This document shows positions 13,450 to 29,295 of a stretch of 64,000 nucleotides of DNA, in pieces. The position numbers were made by a program, and so were the translations under genes. The notes beneath the pieces are model-generated. The model was not told the DNA's origin. It did not search any database and worked only from the letters and a program-made list of their open reading frames with translations. Every line of letters begins with the position of its first letter. The stretch's first letter is position 1. The stretch is from Planctomycetota bacterium (GTDB taxonomy: Bacteria; Planctomycetota; Phycisphaerae; SM23-33), in the NCBI GenBank assembly GCA_016235825.1, contig JACRIL010000152.1, forward strand, positions 53,414-117,413. Reading direction: 5' to 3'.

Positions 13450-13455
13450 GCACTC

Positions 13456-13950: not shown

Positions 13951-13971
13951 TAAAAAAGCCCCGCTGCTGAG

Positions 13972-14214
13972 TTATCTATCGAAAAATTCTTCCTTGGGAA
14001 TCTGGAATTTCCGTGAGATCATGGCCAAATGTGGAGCGCGAACCATAGCGCTGGAACTATTGCAGCATTTATGCTGAAGGCGCATGAAAAACATCCTGCC
14101 TTCAATTACTTTCTGGAGTTTTTTCTCCGCCCCCTTGCCTTGAAGAACATCAACGCCATGTTCCTTTAAAACCTCCATCACCCGATCCCATCTCTGGCAT
14201 CGGCGATGACTCAT
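13972..14214 (-). CDS. HicA/YcfA-like toxin homolog (possibly degenerate)
   Basis: 80 aa, 4-nt overlap downstream of a HicB-like gene; aligns to HicA core (..L..HG......G(S/A)..) but the conserved GSH His appears replaced (KGAEKK). Confidence 0.35.
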   Translation of the reverse strand: MSHRRCQRWDRVMEVLKEHGVDVLQGKGAEKKLQKVIEGRMFFMRLQHKCCNSSSAMVRAPHLAMISRKFQIPKEEFFDR

Positions 14215-14576: not shown

Positions 14577-14692
14577 TCGCCGTCTCCTTCACTTTCGGCC
14601 GCAATTGTCGCCTTTTCGCAGTGCCCGTCAAGGCAAATCGCCACCGCCCTACCTGAATTATATATCGCTACTATCGGCAAAACCATGACCTC

Positions 14693-15946
14693 TCACCCTA
14701 TTTTTTTCGCCGCCTCGATGGCCAGTGCCAGGTCAAGTTCGGCGTAGTGGTCTGCCATGCCCAGCGAGCGGTGGCCCAGGACGGCCCGGGCGACGTCCAG
14801 GCCCTTGCCCTTGAACTCCTGCCGCAGGCGTGTGGCGGCGGAATGTCGTAGCTGGTGCGGGTGCCAGTGGGGGACCTTCGCGGCCTTGCAGGCGTAGTCG
14901 ACGGCCCGGCCGTAGGATTGAGGCGTGTAGGCCTCGCCGGGCCGTTTCTTGGGCGATTCCTTGACGTTCGTGCCGGGTTCATTGCCCTGGCCGGCAGGCG
15001 TCTGGCGGCCTTCGTGCAAGGCCTTGCGGCGTTGTTTGTCGGCCTGGGCCGGAGAGAAGCAGAAGACGCCGGCGGGCCGGTCGAGATATTTGCGTAAAAT
15101 CTCCTGGGCCTTGGGGCCAAGCGCGATCGCACGTTTGTGGTCGTGATGCTCGGTCTTATGACTGCCGGGGCGGTATATCCAGATCGACTTTTTGCGGTCA
15201 ATGTCGCCGGGCTGCAAGGTAACCAGTTCGCCGGAGCGCATACCAGTCAACTGCTGAATTCGGACCATGTCGGCGACAATAGGCGACATGTGCGGCAGGG
15301 CGGCCTTGACATCTTTTTCCGGCACGGATTCCACAGGCTCGCTCTCCTTGACGCCGGGAACACCTTTGCGAAGTCCCTCTACGGCCAGCAGGCCATGCCA
15401 GACAGTGGCAGGCACAAGCTGTTCCCCGGCCGCCCAGCGGAACATCCGCCGGATGATATTTACCCTCTGATTGATGACTTTGCGGGCGAGTTGGGCAATA
15501 ATCATTTTGTGCCGGACCTCTTTGAGTTTCAGGGGGCCGAAGTCCGCGGCCTGCATTCCTGGGCAAAATTCCACAAGATGCTGAAGGGCATATCGGATAT
15601 TCGCAGCTTCACCTGTGGGCCGGCCGTCCGGCTTGCGATATCGCTGATCGGCATGGGCCAGAAAATTTTTAATCAGACAGGCAAGGCTGCCATCCCACTT
15701 CCCCGGCTCAAAAATTTTCCCGCCGATCTCCGCCTTGAGCACCAGATTGCGGTACAAGTCCCTGGCGACTGCCTCGGCCACGGCCCGGTCCTTCGTGGCC
15801 CATCGCGCCCCCTCAGGCACAAGCGGTCGGGATATATATCTTTCATCCCCAGGCAGTTTTACCCGCCAGTGATAACGGCCGTGATTGAGATAAATGGATC
15901 CCGGAATTTTGTCGCTTTTTGCTGCTGGCTTGGCGGTATTTGTCAT
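14693..15946 (-). CDS. Tyrosine-type site-specific integrase
   Basis: 417 aa; C-terminal catalytic residues HQLRHSAATRL ... LGHRSLGMADHYA (R..HxxR..Y); gene ends 74 nt from tRNA-Ala 3' end. Confidence 0.75.
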   Translation of the reverse strand: MTNTAKPAAKSDKIPGSIYLNHGRYHWRVKLPGDERYISRPLVPEGARWATKDRAVAEAVARDLYRNLVLKAEIGGKIFEPGKWDGSLACLIKNFLAHADQRYRKPDGRPTGEAANIRYALQHLVEFCPGMQAADFGPLKLKEVRHKMIIAQLARKVINQRVNIIRRMFRWAAGEQLVPATVWHGLLAVEGLRKGVPGVKESEPVESVPEKDVKAALPHMSPIVADMVRIQQLTGMRSGELVTLQPGDIDRKKSIWIYRPGSHKTEHHDHKRAIALGPKAQEILRKYLDRPAGVFCFSPAQADKQRRKALHEGRQTPAGQGNEPGTNVKESPKKRPGEAYTPQSYGRAVDYACKAAKVPHWHPHQLRHSAATRLRQEFKGKGLDVARAVLGHRSLGMADHYAELDLALAIEAAKKIG

Positions 15947-16019
15947 AAAACTATCGTAACATATTTACCGCCAAAGTCAAGCCCCTGATATTATTCAATA
16001 TTTACAGCCTTAAACTGAT

Positions 16020-16092
16020 TGGAGACACGGGGGATCGAACCCCGAACCTCTAGCTTGCAAAGCTAGCGCTCTCCCAATTGAGCTATGTCCCC
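16020..16092 (-). tRNA. tRNA-Ala (anticodon UGC)
   Basis: Reverse complement GGGGACATAGCTCAATTGGGAGAGCGCTAGCTTTGCAAGCTAGAGGTTCGGGGTTCGATCCCCCGTGTCTCCA: cloverleaf with G3:U70 Ala identity pair, anticodon loop TT-TGC-AA, TTCGATC T-loop. No encoded CCA. Confidence 0.85.
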
Positions 16093-16132
16093 TCTCGTGC
16101 ACGCAACCTTAAAAGTTGTTCCGCCGGCAAAA

Positions 16133-16206
16133 TGGGCCTGGACCGATTCGAACGGTCGACCTTGCCCTTATCAGGGGCACGCTCTAACCAACTGAGCTAC
16201 AAGCCC
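16133..16206 (-). tRNA. tRNA-Ile (anticodon GAU)
   Basis: Reverse complement GGGCTTGTAGCTCAGTTGGTTAGAGCGTGCCCCTGATAAGGGCAAGGTCGACCGTTCGAATCGGTCCAGGCCCA: near-identical to canonical bacterial tRNA-Ile(GAT); anticodon loop CT-GAT-AA. Confidence 0.85.
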
Positions 16207-16330
16207 GGCCTCAGGATGGCTGGCGCCACCTGTCAAAACGGATTTTACCTGGAAATTTCCCGTCCTTCAAGTATTTTGCCGGCCAATTCAACCTGCCATG
16301 CAACGGCATATCCGCCCATTCCGTCTGGTA

Positions 16331-16513: not shown

Positions 16514-18841
16514 ATGCTCAATCTTGTTCCTTGTCCGATGCAAGTACGCCAGATGCCCGGAAGTTTCCTGCTGTCGGCGAAAGCCGCCCGGCTGGGTTCG
16601 TGGCCAGCGCCCGGCATTACGGAATCGGTGCGGCACAAACTGAAGTCCCTGGGTTTTTCCATCATCCGCGACGCAAGCCTGCCGGAACTTACCGTCATTT
16701 TCGGCTCGCCGTCGCTGAAAAACCCCGATCCGCCGTCCAGGCCGGAAGGTTACGCGCTTCATTGCGACCGGAATGGCGTTGCGGTTCGAGGCCGCGACGC
16801 GGACGGGCTTTTCTGGGGCCTCGTTACGCTCGAACAGCTTCTTGACGGCGGGCGCCGCGTGCCGTGCGTCGAAATCCATGACGCCCCGGCGTATCCCTTC
16901 CGGAAGCACGTAGACGACATCTCCCGCAGGCAGATTTCCCGGCTCGATGATTTCATGGAGATCATCCGCCGGCTGTCGTACTACAAGATCCGGTACTATT
17001 GCCCGTATATGGAGGACGTTCTTTACATAAGAAGTTTTCCCGAGATCGGCCAAGGCCGCGGGCGGCTCACGCCGGCCGAATTACGAACCATGCACGCCGA
17101 GGCGCGCAGGCACAACATTACCATCCTGCCGAAATATTCGCTGCTGGGCCACCAGGAGAACCTGCTGAGCCACCGGAAGTTCCGCAAGTATGCCCGCGAG
17201 GTTTTCCAGTTTCCTTCGGCATATGACGTGCGTAAGCCCATCCTCCGCCCGTATCTCCGCAAGGTCATACGGGACGTCTGCGGGCTTTTCCCGGACTCGC
17301 CATATTTTAACGCCCAGTTTGACGAGGTGATCGGGCTTACCGAGAAGGAATTCATGGCCCACGCCCTGTGGTGCGCCAAAGAGCTTGCCCGATACGGCAA
17401 GCGGATGATGATGGCTGCGGACATGTTCAAGAACCATTACGGCCTGAAAAAGATCCGGCGCCTGACCGGCGGCATTGTTACCAATGAATGGAACTACGGC
17501 GATCCTCGCAATGTGGAAAAGGCTTATCTCAAGCTGAAGTTGGCGCCGCTCGGACAGGCCGGCTACTGCAACTGGTGCGCGTTTCTGCCTTCATTCGTCA
17601 ACGCCAAGCGCAACATCGACCTGTGGACCGGCGTGATGCGCCGCTGGGGCGGGCCGGGCTTCGGCTCCTCGCAGTGGGGCGACGGCGGATACGAGAACCA
17701 CCGCGACCTCTGCTGGAACCTCTTTGCCTATTATGGCGAAGCGGTCTGGACCGGCCGGGCCGTGCAAAAAGACTTCGAGAGCCGCTTCCAGGCCACGTTT
17801 TACGGCGCGCCGCTGCCGGGCCTTAAAAAGATTGTTGAAGAAATTGCGCCGGCCCGGAAAATCGCCCCTGCGCAATCGTGGAAACTTTTCCGCATGCCCT
17901 GGAACGGGCTGGTGCGGTTCGCGGCCGTGAAAAAGGACTCGCTGAAAGACGCCCGGACCGATCTGGCCGCGATCCGCAAAGGCCTGGCCCTGCTGAAAAC
18001 CTGCCGGCCGAAACGAAATGCCGCGCACCTGGAGCATTTTCGAGTGGCGCTGGAGCGCGAGCGCCACGTGCGCGAGCGGCTTTTGCTGGCCGGCCGCGCC
18101 GCCGCCGGACTTGCGGGGCCGGCTCTTGCCAGGGCCGCCCGCAAAATGCTGGGCGACCTGCGGGCTGTTCGCAAAATGTACGAGCGGGACTGGCTGAGAA
18201 ACAACAAACGTCCCAACATCGAGGTCTCCCTGAAAGTATTCGACGATTTCGCCGATTCGATGCGTCAGGCCATGACCTCGTGCAGCCGACAGTCCGGCAG
18301 GTATCGTTGTCTGGACCTCGGCGGATTTTACAATACATATATTCCCGACGTCGGCGGCGTGCCGATCGGACCGGGGATGGTAAACGGCGTGCCGTTCCGG
18401 TTTGCGGGCCTGCATCATTCGCACGCCGACCTGACGCACGACAAGCCGCTGTGCCTGCAATTCAAGGCCTGCAAAGTCAGCGACATACATATAATCTGCG
18501 GCGGCCAGAGAATCGCGGCCGATCTCAAAAAAATCGGACCCATGGCCGAGATTGCCCTGTACCACAAAGGCAAAATCGTGTTTTCTGAAAAGCTGCTTTC
18601 CATACGGCATATATGTGACTGGTGGGCGCCGCTGGGCGAGCATATATGGGCCGGCGGCGGATTTCTGCACGTGGACCGCAAACGCGTATCTTACGCCCTC
18701 AAGCCCGGGCAGATGCACGGGCTGACGCACCTGTCCAGATTCAAGGTCGTTGGCAGACGGGCCGACGCCCTCCGCATCCGCCTTATTGATAAAGGCCCCC
18801 AGGCTATCGGCCTGTTCGCGGCGACGATAGAAACCGTTTAA
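16514..18841 (+). CDS. Glycoside hydrolase, GH20-like (beta-N-acetylhexosaminidase-like) TIM-barrel enzyme, paralog 1
   Basis: 775 aa; N-terminal LNLVPCPMQVRQMPGSF matches GH20b-domain start (IP-P-x...G-F); HDAPAYPFRKHVDDISRRQ...YKIRYYCPYMED aligns to GH20 DxPRFxYRGxMLDxSRHF...LNxxHWHLTDD; candidate acid pair in FNAQFDEVIG. Family assignment tentative. Confidence 0.45.
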   Translation: MLNLVPCPMQVRQMPGSFLLSAKAARLGSWPAPGITESVRHKLKSLGFSIIRDASLPELTVIFGSPSLKNPDPPSRPEGYALHCDRNGVAVRGRDADGLFWGLVTLEQLLDGGRRVPCVEIHDAPAYPFRKHVDDISRRQISRLDDFMEIIRRLSYYKIRYYCPYMEDVLYIRSFPEIGQGRGRLTPAELRTMHAEARRHNITILPKYSLLGHQENLLSHRKFRKYAREVFQFPSAYDVRKPILRPYLRKVIRDVCGLFPDSPYFNAQFDEVIGLTEKEFMAHALWCAKELARYGKRMMMAADMFKNHYGLKKIRRLTGGIVTNEWNYGDPRNVEKAYLKLKLAPLGQAGYCNWCAFLPSFVNAKRNIDLWTGVMRRWGGPGFGSSQWGDGGYENHRDLCWNLFAYYGEAVWTGRAVQKDFESRFQATFYGAPLPGLKKIVEEIAPARKIAPAQSWKLFRMPWNGLVRFAAVKKDSLKDARTDLAAIRKGLALLKTCRPKRNAAHLEHFRVALERERHVRERLLLAGRAAAGLAGPALARAARKMLGDLRAVRKMYERDWLRNNKRPNIEVSLKVFDDFADSMRQAMTSCSRQSGRYRCLDLGGFYNTYIPDVGGVPIGPGMVNGVPFRFAGLHHSHADLTHDKPLCLQFKACKVSDIHIICGGQRIAADLKKIGPMAEIALYHKGKIVFSEKLLSIRHICDWWAPLGEHIWAGGGFLHVDRKRVSYALKPGQMHGLTHLSRFKVVGRRADALRIRLIDKGPQAIGLFAATIETV

Positions 18842-18871: not shown

Positions 18872-21199
18872 ATGCTAAATCTTGTTCCGATGCCGACGCA
18901 AGTACGCCAGATGTCCGGCAGCTTTCTGCTGTCAGTAAAAACTGTCCGCATGGGTCGTCAGCGGCCGGTCGGCGTTACGGAACCTGTCCGGCACAAACTG
19001 AAGACCCTGGGCTTTTCCATCATCCGCGACGACAGCCTGCCGGAGCTGACAGCCGTTTTCAGCTCGCCGTCGCTGAAGAGCCTCAATCCTCCGGCCAAAG
19101 CGGAAGGTTACGCGCTTTGCTGCGACCGGAATGGCGTTGCGGTCCGAGGCCGCGACGCGGACGGGTTATTCTGGGGCCTCGTTACGCTCGAACAGCTTCT
19201 TAACGGCGGCCGCCGCGTGCCGTGCGTCGAGATTCGCGACGCCCCGGCGTATCCCTACCGGGTGCACATGGACGACATCTCCCGCAAGCAGATTTCCACG
19301 CTCGGAGATTTCAGGGAGATCGTCCGCCGGCTGTCGTATTACAAGATCCGTTATTACTGCCCGTACATCGAGGACGTTCTTTATATAAAAAGTTTTCCCG
19401 AGATCGGCGCCGGCCGCGGCCGGCTGACCCCGCCGGAAGTGCGGGCCATGCGCGCCGAGGCCAGGCGACACAATGTGATCATCCTTCCTGACTATTCCCT
19501 GTTGGGCCACCAGGAGAACCTTCTTGCCCGCCCGAAGTTCAGCAAGTACGCCCGCGAGGTTTTCCAGCTTCCTTCCGCCTACGACGTGCGCAAGCCGATC
19601 CTTCGCCCGTATCTCCGCAAGGTCATCCGCGACGTCTGCGAGCTTTTCCCGGACTCGCCCATTTTCTGCGCCGCCTTTGACGAGGTGATCGGGCTTACGG
19701 AAAAAGAATTCATGGGGCACGCCTTGTGGTGCTCCAAAGAACTCGCACGGTACGGCAAGCGGATGATGGTCTGCATGGACATGTTCAAGAACCACTACGG
19801 CCTGCATAAGATCCGCCGTCTGGGTTCCGATGTAATTCCGCTGGAATGGGGCTACGGCGACCCTCGCAAGGTGGAAAAGGCCTATCTCAAACTGAAGATG
19901 GCGCCGTTCGGCCTGTCGGGGTATAATAACTGGTGCATGTTCCTGCCGACGTTCACTGACGGCAAGCACAACATCGACCTGTGGACCGGCGTGATGCGCC
20001 GCTGGGGCGGCCCGGGTTTCGGCGCCTCGCAGTGGGGCGACAGCGGTTACGAAAACCATCGCGACCTTTGCTGGAACCTCTTTGCCTATTATGGCGAAGC
20101 GGTCTGGACCGGCCGGGCCGTCGGCAAAAATTTTGAAAGCAGATTTCAGACCACGTTCTACGGCCGGCCGCTGCCGGGTCTTAAAAAGATCGTGGAAGAT
20201 ATCGCTCCGGCGCGGAAAATCGCCCCGGTGCAGTCGTGGAAGCTCTTCCGGATGCCATGGAACGGGCTGGTGCGTTTGGCGGCCGTGAGAAAGAACTCGC
20301 TGAAAGACGCCCGGACCGACCTGACCGCGATCCGCAAAGGCCTGGCCCTGCTGAAAATCTGCCGGCCCAAACGAAATGCCGCGCACCTGGAGCATTTTCG
20401 AGTGGCGCTGGAGCGCGAGCGCCACGTGCGCGAGCGGCTTCTGCTGGCCGGCCGCGCCGCCGCCGGACTTGCGGGGCCGGCTCTTGCCGGGGCCTTCCGC
20501 AAAACGCTGGCCGACCTGAAGGCCGTCCGCAAAATGTACATCCGCGACTGGCTGCGAAACAACAAACGCCCCAACATTGAGTTCTCGCTGGATGTTTGCG
20601 ACGAAGTCGCCGATTCCATGCGGCAGGCCGTGTCGCCCGCCAAGGCGCCGTCGGGCAAATATCTCTGCCTCGATCTGGGCAAGCGATACGACGCCTATGT
20701 TCCCGACGTCGGCGGCGTGCCGATCGGACCGGGAACAATGAACAACCTGCCGTTCCGGTTTGCGGGTCTGCACCACTCGCACGCCGATCTGACGCACGAC
20801 AAGCCGGTCGATCTGCGGTTCACGCCGTGCAGAATACGCGACCTGCACATCATCTGCGGCGGGCAATACATCGTGCGGGACCTCAAGAAGATATCTCCCC
20901 TCGTCGAGGTCGTCCTCTCGCGCAAGGGCAGGATCGTGTTTTCCGAGAAACTGCTTTCTATACGGCACATCTGCGACTGGTGGGCGCCGCTGGGCGAGCA
21001 TATGTGGTCCGGCGGCGGATATCGCCACGTGGACCGCAAACGCGTATCCTACGCCCTCAAGCCCGGCCACATGCACGGGCTGACGCACCTGTCCGGGTTC
21101 AACATCCGCGGCGTGGAGGCCGACGCACTTTCCCTGCGGCTGCCGGGCAATGCCAAAGAGACCGTCGGTCTGTTCGCGATCACCGCGCAGATCGTTTAG
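18872..21199 (+). CDS. Glycoside hydrolase, GH20-like, paralog 2 (tandem duplicate of 16514-18841)
   Basis: 775 aa, collinear and ~80% identical by eye to paralog 1 over the full length; 30-nt spacer between copies. Confidence 0.45.
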   Translation: MLNLVPMPTQVRQMSGSFLLSVKTVRMGRQRPVGVTEPVRHKLKTLGFSIIRDDSLPELTAVFSSPSLKSLNPPAKAEGYALCCDRNGVAVRGRDADGLFWGLVTLEQLLNGGRRVPCVEIRDAPAYPYRVHMDDISRKQISTLGDFREIVRRLSYYKIRYYCPYIEDVLYIKSFPEIGAGRGRLTPPEVRAMRAEARRHNVIILPDYSLLGHQENLLARPKFSKYAREVFQLPSAYDVRKPILRPYLRKVIRDVCELFPDSPIFCAAFDEVIGLTEKEFMGHALWCSKELARYGKRMMVCMDMFKNHYGLHKIRRLGSDVIPLEWGYGDPRKVEKAYLKLKMAPFGLSGYNNWCMFLPTFTDGKHNIDLWTGVMRRWGGPGFGASQWGDSGYENHRDLCWNLFAYYGEAVWTGRAVGKNFESRFQTTFYGRPLPGLKKIVEDIAPARKIAPVQSWKLFRMPWNGLVRLAAVRKNSLKDARTDLTAIRKGLALLKICRPKRNAAHLEHFRVALERERHVRERLLLAGRAAAGLAGPALAGAFRKTLADLKAVRKMYIRDWLRNNKRPNIEFSLDVCDEVADSMRQAVSPAKAPSGKYLCLDLGKRYDAYVPDVGGVPIGPGTMNNLPFRFAGLHHSHADLTHDKPVDLRFTPCRIRDLHIICGGQYIVRDLKKISPLVEVVLSRKGRIVFSEKLLSIRHICDWWAPLGEHMWSGGGYRHVDRKRVSYALKPGHMHGLTHLSGFNIRGVEADALSLRLPGNAKETVGLFAITAQIV

Positions 21200-21225: not shown

Positions 21226-22185
21226 TCAATTGCCGAACATGGTGCGGTATTTCATGAGCGCCAGGCAGATGGCCTCGATATTCTCCAGAGGCACGCCGTC
21301 GTCGACCTCGGCGGTCAGCCACAGGCCGCCCGCCGGACTGCCCATCGCTTCGACACATTCGCGAACGTGGCGATCAATCTCATCGGGCGCGGCGAACGGA
21401 AACAACTGCCTGTCCAGGTCCAGGTCGATGCACACCTTCCCCTTGCAGACTCCGACAAGGTTGTCCAGGCCGTTGGCCCGAATCTGCGGATTGACCACGT
21501 TGACCCCGCAGTCGGCCAGGTCCGGGATGATCTCGTAAATGTGGCCGTCGGTGTGCATATAGACGCATGCGCCGGCCTTGCGGCACCGGCCGTAGATCGC
21601 CGCGAAGCATGGTTTGAGGTATTTACGCCACTTGGCGGGACTGATCGGCAGACTGTTCTGAATGCCCAGATCGTCGCCGAAGTGCATCATATCGTCGCCC
21701 TTTAGCCCGGCAATCGCCAGATCGACCTGCCTGAGGTTGTACTCCAGCACCACGTCGATCAGTTTCTGAAGTTCCGGCGGCTCCTCGGCAAAATCGACCA
21801 TTATTTCCTCAAAGCCCCGCAGGTCCGCCAGCCGGAGGTACATGAAACCGTGCGGCAGGCCCGCGTCTTTTGTGGGCATCCGGAGTTTCCATACATCTTG
21901 GCGATTCGGCAGCGGATGCATCTTCACGATGGCCTCGTGGCCGTGGTAGACGTTGCTCCAGACGCAGCCCCATGCGTCCGTGTGGTCGCCCGCGGCATAC
22001 GTCTGGCTCCACAACTTGTCATAGTCGGTCTTGCCGGCCGGCAGCAATTCGGAATATCGTCCGGCGATCGCGCTGAGCTGGTCGCGGTACTTCATCCACG
22101 CCGCCGGCAGCACGCCCAGCCGCACAGGAATCATTTTTGGCCGGTCGAACTTCATGGCGCGAATCTGGTCATCCGACATCTTCAT
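21226..22185 (-). CDS. Uroporphyrinogen decarboxylase (URO-D) family protein (UroD/MtaA-like)
   Basis: 319 aa; HTDGHIYEIIPDLADCGVNVVNP and overall layout typical of URO-D-fold proteins frequently found beside glycosidases in PVC bacteria. Confidence 0.6.
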   Translation of the reverse strand: MKMSDDQIRAMKFDRPKMIPVRLGVLPAAWMKYRDQLSAIAGRYSELLPAGKTDYDKLWSQTYAAGDHTDAWGCVWSNVYHGHEAIVKMHPLPNRQDVWKLRMPTKDAGLPHGFMYLRLADLRGFEEIMVDFAEEPPELQKLIDVVLEYNLRQVDLAIAGLKGDDMMHFGDDLGIQNSLPISPAKWRKYLKPCFAAIYGRCRKAGACVYMHTDGHIYEIIPDLADCGVNVVNPQIRANGLDNLVGVCKGKVCIDLDLDRQLFPFAAPDEIDRHVRECVEAMGSPAGGLWLTAEVDDGVPLENIEAICLALMKYRTMFGN

Positions 22186-22221: not shown

Positions 22222-22407
22222 ATGTATGAAATCGTATTGCGATATTTCATGCGGGCCAAGATCGACGCCGCCGCAAAGATGCTCCGGGCCGGCTCGTCCG
22301 TAACCGCCGCCGCAATGAACCTGGACTTCTCCAGCAGCCGGTGCTTCGCCGCCGCCTTCAAACGCTTCACCAACCGCAGACCCGGCAGCCTGCTGAAATC
22401 GTTATAG
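22222..22407 (+). pseudogene. Truncated AraC-family HTH fragment (C-terminal helix-turn-helix only)
   Basis: YFMRAKIDAAAKMLRAGSSVTAAAMNLDFSSSRCFAAAFKRFTNRRPGS fits the second AraC HTH (..A..lL...sv.eIA...GF.d.syFsr.FKk.fG.sP); upstream sensor/first HTH absent (region occupied by uroD-like gene on opposite strand). Ends exactly where the low-GC island begins. Confidence 0.35.
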
Positions 22408-22584
22408 TCAAATGAAGACCGAAGATATGCTGTTTCCAGGAGCAATTCTCGCAAGAAACGCTTGCAGAGTTTTAGACGCAAGAGATAATGGAAGAAATCT
22501 TCTGTACCACAAGACTGTTTGGATCTGTTATTGTGCGAAGAAACTTATGAAACCGGAAATACCGTGCAATCAGGAGGTTCGACA

Positions 22585-23253
22585 ATGGACCGTTCAAACA
22601 TAGAATCGCAATTGGTGGAGTATTTACGCAAAGCCGGCAGAGATTTCATTCTCCTGTCGAAACTTAAACAGTCGTTACAAAAAGCTATCAGCAACAAGGA
22701 CGCAGTCGCACAGATAGAGAAGAATAATCGGCTGTCCATAATTAAAAAGGGGAAATCTACATATCTGGCTTTTCGGCAGCCTCCGGAGGTATTCGTGTTC
22801 ACTGCTATACAAAAGAAACCAGGACAATCCCCCGGGCAGATCGCGAAATCGACACCTTTGAAAATCCCCGACTTCATCGGGGCGATTAATGTTCTGATCG
22901 CGCGAGGCGATGTGCGTTGTGAAATTAATTCCAAATCATCCAAATATGACATCAAACTGCATCCGAGCAAGCCCAGCGGCAGTGGCAGCGAGGCGAGAGA
23001 AGACCGCGACTTATTCGCCAAAGCGGTCCGGGAACTGGACCGGGGGCAAATCTATATCCGCATCCATGCCGTCCGTGACCGCCTCGGCTGGACGCGCGAA
23101 CGATTTGACAGGATGATCGAGACGCTCCGCGACGAAGGCGTGATACAGTTGCACGCCGGCGACATTACCACGATGTCGAAGGAAGAGGTTGAAAAGAGCT
23201 TCGTCGATGAAAATAACTTCTTTTTTGCCACGCTCACGTGGAGAAAACCATGA
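22585..23253 (+). CDS. Triple winged-helix (wHTH) DNA-binding protein, first gene of low-GC three-gene island
   Basis: 222 aa from ATG 22585 preceded by strong SD caggagg (22571-22577); three wH-like segments (IESQLVEYLRKAGRDFILLSKL; PGQIAKSTPLKIPDFIGAINVLIARGDVRCEI; IRIHAVRDRLGWTRERFDRMIETLRDEGVIQLH). GC ~45% vs ~65% flanks. Confidence 0.5.
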   Translation: MDRSNIESQLVEYLRKAGRDFILLSKLKQSLQKAISNKDAVAQIEKNNRLSIIKKGKSTYLAFRQPPEVFVFTAIQKKPGQSPGQIAKSTPLKIPDFIGAINVLIARGDVRCEINSKSSKYDIKLHPSKPSGSGSEAREDRDLFAKAVRELDRGQIYIRIHAVRDRLGWTRERFDRMIETLRDEGVIQLHAGDITTMSKEEVEKSFVDENNFFFATLTWRKP

Positions 23254-25283
23254 CAACGCCGCAAGAACTCCTTAAGTCGAACAATCCTTTCTATTCGAAC
23301 CGCGTCGGCAATCCATGGGATGACCCCTATCCCGACGTGGAATCCATAAATCATAATGCCTTCGACGGCATTCTCCGTTTGCTCGGTTACAAGACCAAGA
23401 ACCCGAAGGACGCCTGCGCGGGTCTCGTTCTTGGCGAGACCGGTACAGGAAAAACGCATCTCTTGAAGCGGATTCTTCACGCGAGCCGCCGCACGGAGAC
23501 GCCAGCCGTCTTTACTTACGTCCGTCCCATCCTCGATACCACAGCACCGATGCGATACCTGCTCCGCGAGATCGTGATAAACCTTGGCAAAGAGAACGAT
23601 GAAGCACAAAAACGGACTCAACTCGACCTATTCGCGGCGCGAATCCTTATCGATTTCCTCCGCAACGACCAGGACCCAAATCGAAACGCCAAACTATTAA
23701 AGAAACTGGATGAGGATCCTTTCTACATATATCAGGCCAAGATTGATCCGAAGATTATGGAGGAGGCGGAGAAGCGGGCAATTCGGTATCTCCGGCGCAT
23801 CAGTCCAGACATAAGTTCTGATCTGCTGCGAGTGATTGTAAAATACCGCAAAAAGGAGATGCGCGACCTGGTGGTCTGCTGGATGCGAGGCGATGTTATC
23901 GACGGCGAGGAGGAAGCAAACCATCTCGGTACCACAACACGTGTGGACAAGGATATTGGCACTCTAGAACAAGAGGCTAAAGGTTTGATCCTGAGTCTTG
24001 GACAACTGATGGCCCGTTACGGCCGTCCGATGCTCGTCTGTTTCGATCAGCTAGACAACCTGTATGAACCGAGCGCCGTTCGCGCCCTTGAAGCCATGAT
24101 TAACATTCTGGTCCGCGAGGCGCAGGCTATGCTACCTCTTGCCTTTGTCCGGGCGGATTCTTGGAATGAACGTTTTAAAAAAACGATGGATATAGCCGTA
24201 GTTGAATGTCTGGAAGCCAATCGTTTTCTCTTGGAAAGCTGCTCGATGGAGCAGGCCGAGGAACTCGTACGTCGCCGCGTCCAAGCGTTTCTTGGTTCCC
24301 AGACCGAAATGGTGTTCCCTTGGCTGTGGGGACAACTCAAAGATCAAATCAAAAATGGTTATTTCCCAGGCCAAGTGATCGTCCTCGCCAAGCGGACCAT
24401 CGAATCTGAAGGAGAAGAAGGCATTCTCCGCAAATTGGAGGAAACGTACCACAATGAGTGCGAGGCGGTTCTCGCCGATCTCGCGTCCTGGTCTCCGGAT
24501 GGCGACCGACTTGCTTTGGCGCTGGAGACCTACCTGCAAGCGAGTCCCGACATCAAAGGATTGCGCAAGGGCAAAGAAAAGCATGTCTCTTTTGTATTCG
24601 AGGCTCCCGGTGAAAAAGGGAAGGACATCCCGCATATCGCCATTGTCAATGTCGGAGGCGGGTATCATCGCATCGGCAACTGCCTCAAAACGGGAATCGA
24701 ATTCCTTCAAAAATATCCCGAAGGGCAAGGGCGATGTTTCTACATCTCAGATGCTCGCAACTCCATCCCAATTCCTCCTCGGTGGAAAGCCACAAATGAG
24801 TTGCGCCAGACGTTCGAGACCATGGGCGGAATCATGCTTATCCTGGACAAGGATGCAGTCGCGCGATGGTACGCGATCACCTCGCTCGTTTTCAAGGTGA
24901 ACGAGGGTGACATACAGGTCGAGGAAGGTTCCGGGAAACTCAGGGCGGCAACCCGCGAGGAACTGAACCAGATGTTACGGGAAGGCATTTCAAAAGGTTC
25001 GTTCCCTTCCTTGCTGACGGCGGTTAAAGGTCCGGAGACGGCCAAGCCGCAGCCGGAAACGCCGAAGCGGCAGGATGAGACGCGGATGATGGCGTCGGTC
25101 AAGAGTTGTCTCAAGGACAGCCCCATGCGGATGTTGACGATCTCCGTTCTTCTCGGCAAGCTTATACAAAACAAGGTGAAGCTGGATCATGCCGGGCTTC
25201 TCGCATTTTTGGGACAGCATAAGAATATTTTCCGTTTGTTCGAGAACAAGCAGGGCATGACGGTTATGCTCGACCAAACTTGA
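23250..25283 (+). CDS. P-loop NTPase (AAA+/STAND- or Orc/Cdc6-like Walker A GxxGTGKT) with C-terminal wH-like domain
   Basis: Walker A LVLGETGTGKTHLLKRIL, Walker B-like RPMLVCFDQLDNL; ATG 23250 overlaps stop TGA of upstream gene (ATGA) indicating translational coupling; C-terminal LTISVLLGKLIQNKVKLDHAGLLAFLG wH-like. Confidence 0.6.
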   Translation: MTTPQELLKSNNPFYSNRVGNPWDDPYPDVESINHNAFDGILRLLGYKTKNPKDACAGLVLGETGTGKTHLLKRILHASRRTETPAVFTYVRPILDTTAPMRYLLREIVINLGKENDEAQKRTQLDLFAARILIDFLRNDQDPNRNAKLLKKLDEDPFYIYQAKIDPKIMEEAEKRAIRYLRRISPDISSDLLRVIVKYRKKEMRDLVVCWMRGDVIDGEEEANHLGTTTRVDKDIGTLEQEAKGLILSLGQLMARYGRPMLVCFDQLDNLYEPSAVRALEAMINILVREAQAMLPLAFVRADSWNERFKKTMDIAVVECLEANRFLLESCSMEQAEELVRRRVQAFLGSQTEMVFPWLWGQLKDQIKNGYFPGQVIVLAKRTIESEGEEGILRKLEETYHNECEAVLADLASWSPDGDRLALALETYLQASPDIKGLRKGKEKHVSFVFEAPGEKGKDIPHIAIVNVGGGYHRIGNCLKTGIEFLQKYPEGQGRCFYISDARNSIPIPPRWKATNELRQTFETMGGIMLILDKDAVARWYAITSLVFKVNEGDIQVEEGSGKLRAATREELNQMLREGISKGSFPSLLTAVKGPETAKPQPETPKRQDETRMMASVKSCLKDSPMRMLTISVLLGKLIQNKVKLDHAGLLAFLGQHKNIFRLFENKQGMTVMLDQT

Positions 25284-25297
25284 CAGGACATGTTACC

Positions 25298-27310
25298 ATG
25301 CTAAAGGCAACTGTATCTGATTGCCATCTCGCACAACGCTGTCCTCGCCTGCTCGCCAGGCTGAGGGGCGGAAGCGGGAATGCCTGGAAGGTGGGCCTTG
25401 ACAGTTCCGGCGATATTCCGGGGCAGTTGTTTCACGATCAGTTCGCCGCTCCGTTTCATAAGGACATGGCCGCCGCATTCGGAAAGCCGGGCGACTCGTT
25501 TGCCGAGATCCTGCGCGGTCCGGCTGAATCGCTGGGAGATCGAATTTCCTTATTTCTCAGGAATCAATACTTCATCCCCTACCTGGAGAAGCACAGCGAA
25601 ACGTTGACGGCTGACCAGGCCGTAGGGCTGGCGGGGTGCATGACGCGATGGAGCGCGGTCATGGCCGTATTCCTCGCCCCTCTTGTGGGTGACGAAAAAG
25701 ACACCCGCGCGGTTGTCCGGCGCGTGTTTCATCCTCCCGAGCGGTTGCTGCAGGCCGAGCACCAATATGAAGACGGCGAACGGCTGACCGTTTCGGGTCG
25801 TTATGACGCCCTTCTTCTGGACAGCAGCAAGGGCGAGGCTGTTGTGCTGGATTTCAAAGGGCGGCGGCCAACGGATATCTGCGAGGATTTCACGCAGATC
25901 GTTCTGTACGCTTGGTTGATCCGCGAAAGCACCGGCGTCGTTCCCCGGGGGATGGTACTCTACCTCGATGGCGATGGCGGGACAGCCGAATTCCCTGCCG
26001 CGGAGATCGAGCGGGGCATCTGCCAACTGCCCCATCTGTTCGACGATGTGCGGCAGGTAGTAGAGAATCGCGGCCCCCTGCGTCGGGCTGCAGATGCGGC
26101 ACTTTGTCGGGTGTGTCCCTTCGATAAGGCATGTACTGACGAGCCGGGCGTATCCGTTGCTGTCGGGAAGCCACTGAATCCCGTGGCAAAACAATTGGAT
26201 ACTAAACCCCCTCCGCTCGGGAAACCCATCGTGAATTTCCAGGATCAACAGGAGGGTAAGGTCGCTCTGGGGCGGCTCTGCGACCTGCTGGATCGGGTAG
26301 GGTTGCCTTCAAAACCATACGGGGTCATTGTCGGCCCCAGATTCCTGCGTCTACAGATCGTGCCGGAACTTGAGAAAGGCGTTACTGTTGGCAAATTGGT
26401 TAATAAGGCCGAGGATCTCCAGGTCGCACTTGCCTTAAAGGCTCCGCCGCTGATACAGGCTCAACCGGGCCATATCAGCGTCGATCTTCCTCGTAGTAAC
26501 CGTGAGCCGCTGACGCTCGGCGCACTGCTGGAGACTGGCGTTGCAAACCGCCCGGCCTCGACTTGTGCGTTTCCCCTTGGGATGACAATCGAGGGGAAGG
26601 TGTTCTGGGTCGATCTGGCAGAACCCACTATGACCAGCATCCTGATCGGCGGCACTTCCGGCAGCGGCAAGAGCGTGCTCCTGCAGTCCGTCGTCGTGGG
26701 TCTTGGCCTTTGCACCCCACCGGGCGGAGTACGGTTCGTGCTAATCGATCCCAAGCGGGTGACTTTCACGCAATATGCAAAATTTTCATGCGTGGAGAAT
26801 CCGTTATATCTCGATATCGAACCTGCCCTCGCTCGCCTTAAACAATTGGTCGAAGAGATGGATGATCGATACCGCCTCTTTGAGAACGAGGGCGTGTCTG
26901 ATGTCCTCTCCTATGCCAGTCAGACGGAAAAAACGATCTGCCATTATGTTGTCATTATCGACGAATACGCGGATATGATTCTGGACCGTCAAATGCGCAA
27001 TGCTCTGGAAATCTGCATTCAACGCATCGGTCAGAAAGGCCGAGCGGCCGGATTTCACCTGATTCTGGCCACGCAACGGCCGGACGCCAAGGTGGTGACG
27101 GGGATCATCAAGGCAAACCTTCAACTCAAGATATCCCTGAAGGTCGTGTCTGCCAATAACAGTCGAATCATCCTCGACGAGGCAGGCGCGGAATACCTGA
27201 TTGGCCACGGTGATATGCTTGTCGGAGGCAGCACCGCTCTTGAGAGGCTGCAAGGTCCCCTCGTAACGAAGACCGAGCTTGATCAACTTGCTCTGCGGCA
27301 AACCCGATGA
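25298..27310 (+). CDS. Fusion protein: N-terminal Cas4/RecB-like PD-(D/E)XK nuclease with 4-Cys Fe-S cluster + C-terminal FtsK/SpoIIIE-family DNA translocase ATPase
   Basis: Nuclease: Cys at SDCHLAQRC plus CRVCPFDKAC (C-x2-C-x5-C), motif II GRYDALLLD, motif III VVLDFKG, QxxxY as TQIVLYAWL. Motor: Walker A ILIGGTSGSGKSVLLQS, Walker B YVVIIDEYADM, FtsK signature GFHLILATQRPDAKVVTGIIKANLQLKISLKVVS...LDEAGAEYLIGHGDML. Start could alternatively be TTG 25280 overlapping upstream stop. Confidence 0.65.
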   Translation: MLKATVSDCHLAQRCPRLLARLRGGSGNAWKVGLDSSGDIPGQLFHDQFAAPFHKDMAAAFGKPGDSFAEILRGPAESLGDRISLFLRNQYFIPYLEKHSETLTADQAVGLAGCMTRWSAVMAVFLAPLVGDEKDTRAVVRRVFHPPERLLQAEHQYEDGERLTVSGRYDALLLDSSKGEAVVLDFKGRRPTDICEDFTQIVLYAWLIRESTGVVPRGMVLYLDGDGGTAEFPAAEIERGICQLPHLFDDVRQVVENRGPLRRAADAALCRVCPFDKACTDEPGVSVAVGKPLNPVAKQLDTKPPPLGKPIVNFQDQQEGKVALGRLCDLLDRVGLPSKPYGVIVGPRFLRLQIVPELEKGVTVGKLVNKAEDLQVALALKAPPLIQAQPGHISVDLPRSNREPLTLGALLETGVANRPASTCAFPLGMTIEGKVFWVDLAEPTMTSILIGGTSGSGKSVLLQSVVVGLGLCTPPGGVRFVLIDPKRVTFTQYAKFSCVENPLYLDIEPALARLKQLVEEMDDRYRLFENEGVSDVLSYASQTEKTICHYVVIIDEYADMILDRQMRNALEICIQRIGQKGRAAGFHLILATQRPDAKVVTGIIKANLQLKISLKVVSANNSRIILDEAGAEYLIGHGDMLVGGSTALERLQGPLVTKTELDQLALRQTR

Positions 27311-27329
27311 TGGGTTAACTATTTCCCAC

Positions 27330-27378
27330 GTGCAACCCTGGCACGGCAGGCGTGCCGTCGCCTGACGGCAAGTTGCAC
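27330..27378. terminator. Nested GC-rich hairpins between convergent genes (terminator-like, no T-run)
   Basis: gtgcaac(27330-27336)/gttgcac(27372-27378) outer stem; inner ggcacg/cgtgcc (27340-27356) and gccgtc/gacggc (27354-27370). Confidence 0.25.
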
Positions 27379-27381
27379 GCC

Positions 27382-29295
27382 CTACGATTTGAAGGAGACC
27401 TTTTCGAGTTGGAGGTTTCGCTTGTTGCTTCTGAAGGCCAGGCGGGCGTGTGCGGTCTGGACGTTGAGCACGCCGCCGGGCGCGGTTTTAACGTGTAGTT
27501 TTCCGGCCTGGGATTCCCGCGAGAAGACGCTGACGATGAAGGTTTTTTCGGCGGCCGGGACGGCCAGGCGGATGATGTTGTCGGTTTGTCCGTGCCCCAG
27601 CGGCCTGGTCTGCGCGGCGGCGGCGGCCTTCGACGTGCAGGCCAGGGCGAAGTGCATCGCCGTCAACTGGCCGGCGATCTGCCCCGACATGCCGTGGGCG
27701 TCCAGGTGCACCGGTCCGCTGACGTGCCAGAACAGGTCGGCCTGGGCCGGGCCGGAAAGATGCAGTTCATCGACAACCACCAGTCCCCTGCCGGCGTGTG
27801 CGGCCGGGTCCATCAGCAGAATCGCATGGCGGATGAATCTGTTGTTCTGGCCGAAGGCGTCGCCGGCCTCGCAGGCGAGCCATCGGAAGTCGTCGCCGGC
27901 CTGGGCCTCGATGATCGAACCCTGGGCGTCTATCCGGTGGTCGCTGTCGGAAAGGATGATCGTGTTGTGCGCCCGGGCCTGCACCTCGTAGAAATCGTCT
28001 TTGGCAGGCATGGCGAATTCCATCGTCTGCGGCGACTGGCCCGGATCGGTCAGCACCATCTCGCCGTCGGCCTGAAACTGGATGGAGTTCATGTCGCGCT
28101 GCGAGTGGTGGGCCGAGAGGTCGCCGGTCTTTGCGGCAAGATACATTTTGGGCCTGGGCCAGGCGTCCGCCATCGCGGCCCAGCCGATCTCATTGAAGAC
28201 CTTCACGGGCGCCAGGCCGGGGGTTATCGCCGCCGGCAGGTCCGCCGGGCGGAAGAGCAGCGCCAGGCCCACGCTCGACCAGCCGGTCGAGCCGACGTCG
28301 CGATGGAAGGCGTACGCGTCGAGCCACCATGCGAGTTCCTTCTGGCCGTAGTGGCGGGCCAGCAGGTACAGCGCGCCGTAAAGCGGGGCGACCGGCGAGT
28401 CGCCGAAGCTGGCCGGATGGCCGTTGGGCGTGAAATAGATCGGGAAAAGCCCCGTGGCGTTCATGCCGCGGGTGTGATAGATCGACTGGTCGTGGAGCAG
28501 CCGGCTGCTCGCCTCGGCCAGCAGGCAGACGTACCGCATGGCGTAGCCCCAATAGCCGATCCCCTCGTCCCATCCGCCCTCGCGGCCCAGGGCGTCGAAG
28601 AAGTGTCTCAGCCCGTCGCGTGCCTGCCGGCCGGCCCTGGCGGCAAGCGGCTCGTCGTCCGAAAGGGCCATCGCGGCTATCGCGCAGCCGCTGTTGACCA
28701 CCGCGTTCCAGGCGTGATAGCAGGAGTACCACCACGCCCCGGCCTTGACCGCCGCAAGATACGGATCGACGACCTTTTTGCGGATCGCCTGCATCACCCT
28801 CAGCCGGTCCGGCTCGGAGAGGTCCTCCCAGAGCCAGTCCAGCCCGACCGCCGCGGCGACTGCGGCCTCGGCCGTGCACAGATCGACCAACTGATCGCTG
28901 TGGCAGGGATCGACCCAGTTCGTCCAGCCGACCAGATTCCGCAGTTCCTCGACGGCCCGGCCGCGGTACGCCGGATTCGCGTCGATGTGATGGGCGATAA
29001 GCAGGTCGAAAATCCTGCCCTGTGAGGTCCGGGCCGCCTGAAGCCCGCTTGCCCAGACGCCCTGCTGCCACATCGACCGCCAGTGCTGCTCGGTCATCGG
29101 GCTGGATTCCAGAATTTTTGCGCATCGCTTCCGCAGCGCGTCGTAGAAGGCGTCGAACGGCTTTTTGCCGATCCGCGCCGCCAGGCCCTGAAGGTCCTGT
29201 CTTGTCGCCAGTATGCCGCGTCTCATCCTTGCCTCGTCCCGGGCGGCGTTCCGTCCGCCCGACGAATCAAAGCATACGACTACTTTGGCCAACAT
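27382..29295 (-). CDS. Heparinase II/III-like family polysaccharide lyase
   Basis: 637 aa; alpha/alpha-toroid-like N-half with W/Y-rich helices and C-terminal SAHHSQRDMNSIQFQADGEMVLTDPG (H-x-H-x-D...D.G signature of heparinase II/III-like C-domain). Start codon uncertain (29-nt overlap with upstream ORF; internal Met at 29226 possible). Confidence 0.55.
   Translation of the reverse strand: MLAKVVVCFDSSGGRNAARDEARMRRGILATRQDLQGLAARIGKKPFDAFYDALRKRCAKILESSPMTEQHWRSMWQQGVWASGLQAARTSQGRIFDLLIAHHIDANPAYRGRAVEELRNLVGWTNWVDPCHSDQLVDLCTAEAAVAAAVGLDWLWEDLSEPDRLRVMQAIRKKVVDPYLAAVKAGAWWYSCYHAWNAVVNSGCAIAAMALSDDEPLAARAGRQARDGLRHFFDALGREGGWDEGIGYWGYAMRYVCLLAEASSRLLHDQSIYHTRGMNATGLFPIYFTPNGHPASFGDSPVAPLYGALYLLARHYGQKELAWWLDAYAFHRDVGSTGWSSVGLALLFRPADLPAAITPGLAPVKVFNEIGWAAMADAWPRPKMYLAAKTGDLSAHHSQRDMNSIQFQADGEMVLTDPGQSPQTMEFAMPAKDDFYEVQARAHNTIILSDSDHRIDAQGSIIEAQAGDDFRWLACEAGDAFGQNNRFIRHAILLMDPAAHAGRGLVVVDELHLSGPAQADLFWHVSGPVHLDAHGMSGQIAGQLTAMHFALACTSKAAAAAQTRPLGHGQTDNIIRLAVPAAEKTFIVSVFSRESQAGKLHVKTAPGGVLNVQTAHARLAFRSNKRNLQLEKVSFKS

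Follow-up and report, generated by a model that had tools for sequence, protein, structure and literature searches.

A three-gene planctomycete cassette with the domain set of the predicted Orc/CDC6-REase-HerA/FtsK capture systems

Introduction

To our knowledge, the only experimentally studied systems whose design is comparable to that of the cassette described here are the DndFGH/SspFGH complexes, which are much larger. A wider class was predicted by comparative genomics (NAR 2024;52:1005; PMC10853773, section 22) in a section titled 'DndH is a member of a broader array of HerA-FtsK capture systems'. As that section describes them, the Orc/CDC6-REase-HerA/FtsK 'capture systems' combine an Orc/CDC6 ATPase (interrupted by an inactive REase and ending in a wHTH) with an active REase and a HerA/FtsK protein, one set of which has an FtsKα domain; a separate protein with two to four wHTH domains is optional, and in one variant a 3'-5' exonuclease is fused to the FtsK protein (PMC10853773). 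Two REase families are named in the prediction, the neighbourhoods are described as showing features of mobile elements and defence systems alike, and for these mobile neighbourhoods an anti-invader role is proposed (PMC10853773). The class is itself a prediction with no experimental support, and no experimental work on such cassettes was found in the literature searched.

Here we describe a well-delimited cassette of ∼4.9 kb from a Planctomycetota bacterium, within a 64,000-nucleotide stretch of DNA that was analysed as a whole (the window). A preliminary description had presented it as a candidate undescribed system, a label that does not survive comparison, as the combination of parts matches the capture systems of the section cited above (PMC10853773); because the kind was already described in 2024, the cassette opens no new category.

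Results

Boundaries and composition of the cassette

Three plus-strand genes, A, B and C, are flanked by a URO-D-like gene on the left and a heparinase II/III-like gene on the right and are translationally coupled (Table 1), and all of the open reading frames first reported there were confirmed. The likeliest start of gene A is the ATG at 22585, with AGGAGG 7 nt ahead of it. The ATG of gene B overlaps the TGA of gene A as ATGA (23250-23253), and gene C more probably begins at the ATG at 25298 than at the alternative TTG at 25280, which overlaps the gene B stop. GC is 0.425 across 22400-22799, and a consensus promoter scan upstream of gene A gave a sole hit that overlaps the start codon and did not identify the promoter itself.

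Table 1. Features of the cassette and its flanks (positions in the window)
Feature	Position	Strand	Remarks
URO-D-like gene	21226-22185	-	left neighbour of cassette
AraC-type regulator remnant, second HTH only	22240-22407	+	boundary marker at left, outside system
AT-rich intergenic region upstream of cassette	22408-22584	+	presumed promoter; RBS AGGAGG 22572-22577
Gene A, three tandem winged-helix (wHTH) domains	22585-23253	+	222 aa
Gene B, Orc/Cdc6-clade AAA+ ATPase	23250-25283	+	677 aa
Gene C, nuclease::FtsKα::FtsK motor	25298-27310	+	670-676 aa by start choice
C, N-terminal Cas4/RecB-type PD-(D/E)XK nuclease	25298-26170	+	four-Cys Fe-S type signature
C, FtsK alpha domain	26246-26491	+	Pfam FtsK_alpha, E 0.0016
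C, FtsK/SpoIIIE motor (beta) domain	26528-27310	+	Pfam FtsK_SpoIIIE, 2.1e-34
GC-rich structured hairpin, gap between gene C and heparinase-like gene	27329-27379	.	MFE -32.1 kcal/mol, z -3.0 vs shuffles
Heparinase II/III-like gene	27382-29295	-	right neighbour, convergent with gene C

The left edge of the island is position 22408, which directly follows the stop codon of the AraC remnant and is not the start of gene A. The truncated AraC-type HTH reported at this border is indeed a fragment, consisting of 54 C-terminal residues (Pfam HTH_18, E 3.1e-8, profile positions 25-79 of 80) with a high, host-like GC; it cannot have its N-terminal part because the URO-D-like gene starts at 22185. The hairpin downstream of gene C is probably a bidirectional terminator and the island's right edge. 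No terminal inverted or direct repeats were found at the island ends. The window has a single integrase gene (14693-15946), which is part of another island, one that adjoins tRNA-Ala and lies 6.5 kb away from the trio.

A fall in GC from ∼65 to 45 per cent had been taken as a mark of acquisition. The fall is milder than these figures imply, values of 0.43-0.50 being confined to the first ∼600 nt of the island and its mean being 0.54 against 0.588 for the whole window, with lower GC in just 6 of 119 windows of the island's size; the foreign composition itself stands, as GC3 of the three genes is 0.60-0.63 versus 0.75-0.85 in four flanking genes. The cassette is clearly foreign to its host in composition.

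The three proteins

The AF2 model of protein A contains three winged helices (pLDDT 85), and the protein is presumed to be the DNA-recognition subunit. PADLOC-DB 2.0.0 yielded no model for A, and a search for a sequence link between A and DndG/DUF4007 detected none.

Protein B, whose best structural match is Orc/Cdc6, has a Walker A motif GETGTGKTH at residues 62-70 and a Walker B motif FDQLD at residues 265-269, in which Gln replaces the catalytic Glu. Between the AAA+ core and the C-terminal wHTH an α/β domain is inserted at ∼436-590 (∼418-590 when all of its elements, in the order helix-three strands-helix-strand in the AF2 model, are counted); invariant acidic and Lys residues are absent from its first three strands, and the domain is a candidate inactive REase, with no match to the nuclease of C by hhalign. 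The C-terminal wHTH (residues 610-674) comprises three helices and a β-hairpin in the AF2 model, and Pfam gives weak winged-helix matches at residues 606-670. PADLOC-DB 2.0.0 returned no specific model for B, with matches at the P-loop level only (mad8, 8e-5; Avs2). A census of 1.84 billion proteins gave 209 B-family representatives at E<=1e-30, and B had no match among 72,556 plasmids and 50,697 phages.

The N-terminal domain of protein C matches Pfam PDDEXK_1 (5.1e-9) and, at residues 155-286, the PADLOC Cas4 models (7.6e-9), and a Cas_Cas4 domain is precomputed in some homologues. No variation is seen among 33 homologues of C at C15, D170, K187, Q200, Y204, C270, C273 and C279. FtsK_alpha is precomputed in many homologues and reaches 1.8e-10 in a cyanobacterial one. 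The motor retains Walker A (GGTSGSGKS), Walker B (D555/E556) and the Q593/R594 motif, and matches FtsK in PDB (2iuu, 4e-47) and in NCBIfam (PRK10263, 1.6e-45) as well as the C-terminus of the PADLOC SspH model (5.5e-58, positions 1446-1761 of 1,766). The gamma domain (Ftsk_gamma, PF09397) and the membrane domain (FtsK_4TM, PF13491), both of which occur in bona fide FtsK proteins matched by C, are absent from C by Pfam search. PADLOC-DB 2.0.0 matches C via shared FtsK and Cas4 domains only. The anatomy first proposed, a triple-wHTH protein, an Orc/Cdc6-like NTPase and an Fe-S Cas4-like nuclease fused to FtsK, is thus borne out by Pfam, PADLOC, NCBIfam and AF2.

Distribution and neighbourhood

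Conservation of the three genes as a unit in other genomes had been set as a check on the first interpretation, and they are co-inherited: the order A-B-C is found at each of the 15 non-cyanobacterial genome loci whose upstream DNA extends for 2.8 kb or more, and is also kept in every long contig examined. Two of the 15 loci (L021 and L024) lack the Cas4-like nuclease and have B fused to the FtsK half. The lineages include Planctomycetota, Synergistaceae, Desulfobacterota and SAR324, together with Methanomicrobiales, in which B and C are seen, cut by contig ends. The distribution is patchy and spans Bacteria and Archaea, and the flanking genes differ per lineage, even among the closest homologues (55-65% identical). 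Among homologous loci A and B are 28-35% identical where C is 40-48% identical, a rate of evolution typical of conflict genes.

In a distant cyanobacterial clade, 45 loci have B-like and C-like genes preceded by an A-like gene; hhalign relates A to the cyanobacterial A-like family (85%, E 6e-6), and the C-like protein bears a fused 3'-5' exonuclease (DNA_pol_A_exo1, 7.6e-32). In many Nostocales and some Oscillatoriales the trio is syntenic, with glycosyltransferases upstream and ParA-like and IleRS genes downstream, and its inheritance there looks vertical, a pattern uncommon among defence genes.

The neighbours of related loci are mostly housekeeping or metabolic genes. PADLOC matches (E<=1e-10) occur in only a handful of 112 neighbouring ORFs, each family being matched by one protein alone, in a count with no background control, and guilt by association is accordingly weak. 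One locus alone (L006) has defence-like company, with tandem related modules, an AAA_15/AAA_21 ATPase and a caspase.

The initial view of a horizontally acquired, self-contained DNA-targeting cassette therefore holds on the GC3, the varied flanks and the patchy distribution; its horizontal acquisition is real, as is its recurrence as a unit in many lineages of both Bacteria and Archaea.

Discussion

A defence function for the cassette, as the domain logic suggests, is plausible and unproven. On balance we favour its placement in the capture class, most likely as a stand-alone, horizontally mobile system that degrades the DNA of invaders (phages or plasmids). The domains of the mechanism outlined here are those identified above, and we infer every step. 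A feature of invader DNA would be recognised jointly by the C-terminal wHTH of B and by A, the fast-evolving triple-wHTH protein. B would then act as an AAA+ switch akin to ORC, Cdc6 and TnsC, oligomerising on the recognised DNA and recruiting or loading C; because its Walker B motif has Gln at the position of the catalytic Glu, it is probably an ATP-binding, slowly hydrolysing assembly factor. Double-stranded DNA would be pumped by a hexameric ring of C, of FtsK type, and fed to six N-terminal Cas4/RecB-type Fe-S nuclease domains, by which it would be cut or resected. There is no modification enzyme in the cassette, and self and non-self may be told apart by free DNA ends or by intermediates of replication or packaging.

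The mobility of the cassette, which is clear, also invites a reading other than host defence, namely that the trio is a module by which a mobile element is maintained or transferred. The Orc/Cdc6-like protein would then be an initiator or target selector (cf. TnsC and MuB), the nuclease would process element DNA and the FtsK-like pump would move double-stranded DNA, as in Streptomyces TraB. The motor of C has a weak NCBIfam match to plasmid TraB, its PDB matches include a 'DNA translocase coupling protein', a distant cyanobacterial version resides on a 328-kb Pseudanabaena plasmid predicted to be conjugative, and the section on capture systems ascribes mobile-element features as well as defence features to such neighbourhoods (PMC10853773). 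We nevertheless consider this reading rather improbable: no relaxase, T4SS, integrase, transposase or replication gene stands beside the trio, either in the window or in any long contig examined, a check that the preliminary description had set for relaxase and T4SS genes, and both the lack of terminal repeats and the lack of plasmid and phage matches to B count against it. With three genes and no recombinase, the trio cannot move itself. The sporadic occurrence outside cyanobacteria, with an insertion site that differs in every lineage, likewise sits poorly with a cellular DNA-maintenance machine (for repair, chromosome or plasmid clearance, or back-up of segregation) that is vertical in some lineages and whose function the planctomycete acquired laterally. 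Cas4/AddB-type nucleases are classic end-resection enzymes, which would suit such a machine, as would the closeness of the C motor to cellular FtsK, the conserved synteny in Nostocales and Oscillatoriales and the mostly housekeeping neighbours in other phyla; the foreign composition in the window and the fast evolution of A and B relative to C speak against it, and we regard it as improbable. A ParA-like gene at L021 has folP between it and the trio and a XerC/D-like gene after it, and is on that account probably a coincidental neighbour.

A further reading makes the trio an abortive-infection or addiction module, in which the nuclease-pump would be a toxin acting on the host chromosome, restrained by A and B and released upon infection or loss of the cassette. 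FtsK motors act on any double-stranded DNA, the cassette has neither a modification enzyme nor other obvious self-protection, and the Walker B variant of B is switch-like; the first wHTH of A also has a weak AbiEi-like match (E 0.006), although this is not significant and is absent from homologues. The present data do not tell such a module apart from direct targeting of invaders, and we judge it decidedly improbable. That C is a CRISPR-associated Cas4 variant serving spacer acquisition, as the matches of PADLOC Cas4 models to its nuclease might suggest, is effectively refuted by context, as no cas1, cas2 or other cas genes accompany the trio in the window or at the related loci examined; TIGR00372 gives 30.2 bits against a cut-off of 65, in every case the nuclease domain is part of an FtsK fusion, and the probability left to this reading is negligible.

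The favoured reading of an anti-invader system could be extended to a joint one, which we offer as speculative and unlikely to hold as a whole. Its nuclease::FtsK protein would represent a Cas4-type Fe-S version not covered by the two REase families of the 2024 prediction. Its mechanism would lack any characterised precedent: the ORC-like AAA+ protein, in which Gln naturally replaces the Walker-B Glu, would be an ATP-locked loader; guided by a hypervariable triple-wHTH reader, this loader would build up on invader DNA an FtsK hexamer tipped with nucleases, and the invader would be degraded processively, self being distinguished from non-self without any DNA-modification mark. As a corollary, the vertically inherited, exonuclease-bearing cyanobacterial clade would have been domesticated for cellular DNA clearance.

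If the prediction is true, the cassette is a compact three-gene immune system that joins a replication-initiator-type ATPase to a double-stranded DNA pump with its own nuclease. The delimited cassette, the B-family census and the catalytic residues provide material for experiments, and natural variants are available in the nuclease-less B::FtsK fusion and in the exonuclease-fused cyanobacterial form.

Comparison with known systems

The cassette resembles HerA-NurA, HerA-Sir2 and HerA-DUF4297 in pairing a ring ATPase of the FtsK-HerA superfamily with a nuclease or other effector, but its motor is of the FtsK clade rather than the HerA clade (PADLOC HerA matches reach just 3e-4), its effector is fused rather than separate and it has an extra Orc/Cdc6 partner. 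BREX BrxC, Tn7 TnsC and Mu MuB are, like B, Orc/Cdc6-clade AAA+ proteins; B differs from them in its accessory domains (the α/β insert and wHTH), and the cassette has no PglX, PglZ, BrxA, BrxB or transposase genes. With the Fe-S RecB-family nucleases of Cas4/AddB/Dna2 type C shares D...(D/E)xK...QxxxY and C...CxxCx5C, invariant in its family, and it departs from them in falling below the Cas4 equivalog cut-off, in its non-CRISPR context and in being fused to a ring translocase rather than a helicase. The α and β motor domains with intact Walker A/B and Q/R motifs are those of cellular FtsK/SpoIIIE, which has an N-terminal membrane domain and a KOPS-binding γ domain where C has neither of these and an N-terminal nuclease instead.

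A parallel three-part logic is seen in the phosphorothioate-associated restriction modules DndFGH/SspFGH, in which the triple-wHTH DndG parallels A, the P-loop NTPase sensor DndF parallels B, and the REase and HerA/FtsK motor of the C-terminal half of DndH/SspH parallel C. DndH/SspH is ∼1,700 aa against 670 aa for C, which lacks the SF2-derived, TRD and inactive-methylase domains, and DndF is a kinase-like P-loop protein whereas B is an Orc/Cdc6 AAA+. A, B and their homologues did not match the PADLOC Dnd/Ssp models, and no dnd or ssp modification genes were found near the cassette in the window.

It is the capture class that the cassette most fully resembles, although the section describing the class refers to no Cas4/RecB-type or Fe-S nuclease (PMC10853773), such as C carries. 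B is an Orc/Cdc6-clade AAA+ protein with an inserted domain, a candidate inactive REase, ahead of the C-terminal wHTH; C has what appears from its invariant catalytic residues to be an active-type PD-(D/E)XK nuclease, joined to an FtsKα domain and an FtsK motor of the cellular-FtsK-derived clade that is related to the DndH/SspH clade; a separate, fast-evolving multi-wHTH gene is present; the distribution is mobile and patchy; and cyanobacterial relatives carry the 3'-5' exonuclease fusion. In its domain set the cassette therefore matches the capture class, an identity that rests on the written description of that class in the section cited (PMC10853773).

Gene content and boundaries of the cassette

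The preliminary description placed three genes at 22408-27380, and the three ORFs found there, all on the plus strand, are flanked as it had stated by a minus-strand URO-D-like gene, an AraC-type fragment and a minus-strand heparinase II/III-like gene. Its domain reading, which assigned three winged helices to A, an Orc/Cdc6-like ATPase to B and a Cas4-like nuclease fused to an FtsK motor to C, also proved accurate. The start of A is preceded by AGGAGG (22572-22577), and its product is identical to the 222-aa protein in the NCBI annotation of the source contig. Of the two candidate starts of C, the TTG overlaps the B stop codon and the ATG yields the 670 residues annotated publicly. C is listed as MBI5724653.1 and B as HZA50_11885.

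The cassette is foreign by composition, with a GC content of 0.43-0.50 in the first 600 nt of the island, a mean of 0.54 against 0.588 for the window, and a GC3 of 0.60-0.63 in A, B and C against 0.75-0.85 in four neighbouring genes. No convincing direct or inverted repeats were found at the island ends, a promoter scan upstream of A returned nothing usable, and the 71-nt gap between the convergent C and heparinase-like genes is filled by a stable hairpin. The AraC-type fragment comprises only the last 54 residues of HTH_18, with no space for an N-terminus; the regulator gene was originally longer and has since been truncated, possibly at the time the cassette arrived.

The integrase and tRNA genes at 14.7-16.2 kb were considered as the vehicle of the cassette and rejected, because the minus-strand tRNA implies an island that extends leftwards and because two genes with a GH20b domain and the URO-D-like gene intervene. 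A second low-GC stretch (8600-16210; 0.51-0.53 at 10-14 kb) ends at this tyrosine integrase gene, holds unassigned ORFs besides the genes tabulated below, and is probably a separate tRNA-integrated island. The Glyco_hydro_20b, URO-D-like and heparinase-like genes share a carbohydrate-degradation neighbourhood. Elsewhere in the window, an Rfam Acido-Lenti-1 sRNA match lies at 46445-46489 (38.7 bits, gathering score 37), and the MoxR-type, DUF58/vWA and 994-aa genes (50925-55951) lie within another lower-GC stretch.

Features of the cassette, of protein B, of the surrounding window and of the cyanobacterial relatives
Feature	Position	Strand	Remarks
Gene A	22585-23253	+	222 aa; ATG 22585 the most plausible start
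Gene B	23250-25283	+	677 aa; ATG within ATGA overlap with A stop codon
B, AAA+ module	N-terminal		AF2 model
B, α/β domain	residues ~436-590		AF2 model
B, winged helix	C-terminal, residues 610-674		AF2 model
Gene C	TTG 25280 or ATG 25298, end 27310	+	two candidate starts
URO-D-like gene	21226-22185	-	left flank
AraC-type HTH_18 fragment	22240-22407		C-terminal, 54 residues
Heparinase II/III-like gene	27382-29295	-	right flank
HTH_3 protein	10488-11135		within 8600-16210 stretch
452-aa protein, C-terminal HNH nuclease	11381-12739		within 8600-16210 stretch
Tyrosine integrase	14693-15946	-	directly adjoins tRNA-Ala and tRNA-Ile
tRNA-Ala	16020-16092	-
tRNA-Ile	16133-16206	-
Glyco_hydro_20b paralogues	16514-18841, 18872-21199	+	775 aa each, domain N-terminal; adjacent
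DUF58/vWA partner of MoxR-type ATPase	50925-51833	-
MoxR-type AAA_3 ATPase	51840-52970	-
994-aa protein	52967-55951	-	no Pfam match; adjoins MoxR-type ATPase gene
Cyanobacterial clade (L026-L080)	e.g. 6389-13013 of locus L079		A-like, B-like and C-like genes

Domain architecture of B and C

The nuclease and motor motifs of C are intact. The protein matches PDDEXK_1 (5e-9), FtsK_alpha and FtsK_SpoIIIE (2e-34), the FtsK_alpha match being weak in the window's C and strong in its homologues. Across an alignment of 33 C homologues, residues D170, K187, Q200 and Y204 are invariant, as are four cysteines (C15, C270, C273 and C279) in a C...CxxCx5C spacing, the signature of Cas4/AddB-type Fe-S RecB nucleases.

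At the sequence level B returned weak generic matches only, to the P-loop families AAA_22 and AAA_16 and, below threshold, to the Sll1717 family. Its AF2 model has a pTM of 0.79 and still reaches a pLDDT of 85 on alignments of 10-11 sequences. The Walker A motif is intact (GETGTGKTH), and the Walker B motif is unusual (FDQLD, residues 265-269, window 24042-24056) in that glutamine follows the invariant aspartate. Among the B-like proteins in which this motif was found, the residue in question is Gln, Asn or Arg and never Glu, and an acidic residue is usually present at +3. A Walker B that lacks glutamate after the aspartate suggests that B may bind ATP and hydrolyse it slowly or not at all. 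The domain inserted in B is a candidate inactive REase whose position and topology fit and whose conserved catalytic residues are absent; comparison with the C nuclease by hhalign found no relation.

Distribution and variants

A search with C recovered about 70 clusters that share the nuclease::FtsK architecture, and scanning a single genome for each species turned up at least 343 relatives; the best 80 loci among them were retained. These 80 include Synergistaceae, SAR324, Thermoguttaceae, Planctomycetaceae, Desulfobacterales, Desulfohalobiaceae, cable bacteria, the archaeal Methanospirillum and Methanomicrobiales, and a large cyanobacterial clade at ~30% identity. The three genes are inherited together: C is immediately preceded by homologues of A and B, in that order, in 15 of 15 non-cyanobacterial loci with sufficient upstream DNA, a count that includes two loci with B fused to the FtsK half (L021 and L024) and leaves aside four further loci that end inside B. 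All longer contigs examined hold the same trio (A ~234-273 aa where complete, B 660-707 aa, C 603-692 aa) among housekeeping or metabolic genes that are unrelated to it, for example AlaRS, DnaK/GrpE, MetRS/EF-G and GatCAB.

The cassette is mobile, and the contexts of its closest relatives (55-65% identical) differ from that in the window. Relaxase and T4SS genes were looked for in the longer contigs and closest relatives examined, and neither these nor adjacent recombinase genes were present. Searching B in 72,556 plasmids and 50,697 phage genomes gave no match; the sole plasmid case is a distant cyanobacterial version on one 328-kb Pseudanabaena plasmid, where RefSeq names the products "hypothetical", "P-loop NTPase fold protein" and "DNA translocase FtsK". 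The B family is real yet uncommon, a profile search of 1.84 billion representative proteins returning 209 matches at E<=1e-30 and 1,019 at E<=1e-10.

Several departures from the canonical trio were found. In L021 (1246-4296), L024 (5095-8136) and the protein homologues P0068-P0074, B is fused straight to FtsKα-FtsK (~1,010-1,060 aa), the Cas4-like domain is absent and the vicinity shows no obvious gene for a separate nuclease. The cyanobacterial C homologue carries an extra N-terminal 3'-5' exonuclease (DNA_pol_A_exo1, 7.6e-32), and the 284-aa gene upstream is a remote A homologue (hhalign 85%, E 6e-6); cyanobacterial homologues include WP_083883959.1 and WP_015146209.1. One Desulfobacterales contig (L006, 2027-16465) has several related modules in tandem, and beside the canonical trio it carries three related Orc/Cdc6-like genes and two A-like genes (one of 407 aa). 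An AAA_15/AAA_21 ATPase, which has a 227-aa partner, and a caspase bearing a peptidoglycan-binding domain are also present, and the whole looks like a defence-island-style array. In two Synergistaceae loci (L001, 5630-7411; L003, 8320-9894) an additional gene of ~470-525 aa, with no Pfam match, lies between B and C, followed in L001 by a 108-aa ORF that clusters with A.

Proposed function

In the proposed mechanism, a DNA feature would be read by A together with the winged helix of B, and B would act as an ATP-dependent, DNA-bound assembly factor in the manner of ORC/Cdc6, TnsC or BrxC. A hexamer of C might then be recruited or loaded by B, and would feed double-stranded DNA, by pumping, to the Cas4-type nuclease domains that it carries.

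A defence function is suggested by this domain logic, by mobility, by the fact that A and B diverge faster than C does, and by the published prediction for such systems. Neighbourhood enrichment is not counted toward it, because just a few of the 112 neighbouring ORFs match PADLOC models, each family through a single protein, in a raw count with no background control. The rival reading, that the trio serves a cellular function, is kept alive by the cyanobacterial clade, which looks vertically inherited and in which synteny is conserved across Nostocales and some Oscillatoriales: the genes upstream encode glycosyltransferases, and those downstream encode a ParA-like ATPase and IleRS. ParA as a general component was rejected, since that synteny is real in cyanobacteria but folP intervenes in L021. 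On balance we lean modestly towards the predicted anti-invader role, that is, towards the class functioning in defence as proposed.

Comparison with known systems

PADLOC-DB 2.0.0 has a dedicated model for neither A nor B, and C matches there only via shared domains (SspH C-terminus, mad8, Cas4). The C motor is near to that of cellular FtsK (PDB 2iuu, 4e-47; PRK10263, 1.6e-45), but the C-terminal motor of SspH is nearer still (PADLOC model, 5.5e-58); identity with cellular FtsK was rejected because true FtsK has a membrane domain and a γ domain and C has neither. Also rejected for the cassette were membership of DndFGH/SspFGH, CRISPR Cas4 identity and a conjugation module, and no sequence link was found between A and DndG/DUF4007.

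The closest precedent is the "HerA-FtsK capture systems" section of PMC10853773 (NAR 2024), which describes mobile neighbourhoods with an Orc/CDC6 ATPase and an active REase; in the available text these also include a wHTH, and one set of the HerA/FtsK proteins has FtsKα captured from cellular FtsK. A 2026 paper in the same line of work restates the association, and the literature searched yielded no experiments on a system of this kind. Judged by the available written description, every one of these features occurs in the cassette or among its cyanobacterial relatives, the inserted domain of B being a candidate inactive REase and A showing no sequence link to DndG/DUF4007. The proposal that the system was undescribed is thus not supported, and by that description the cassette very probably belongs to the predicted Orc/CDC6–REase–HerA/FtsK capture class. 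The available text of PMC10853773, which has "two distinct families" of REase, makes no mention of Cas4/RecB-type nucleases, and the cassette is possibly a nuclease-family variant within this computationally predicted anti-invader class.
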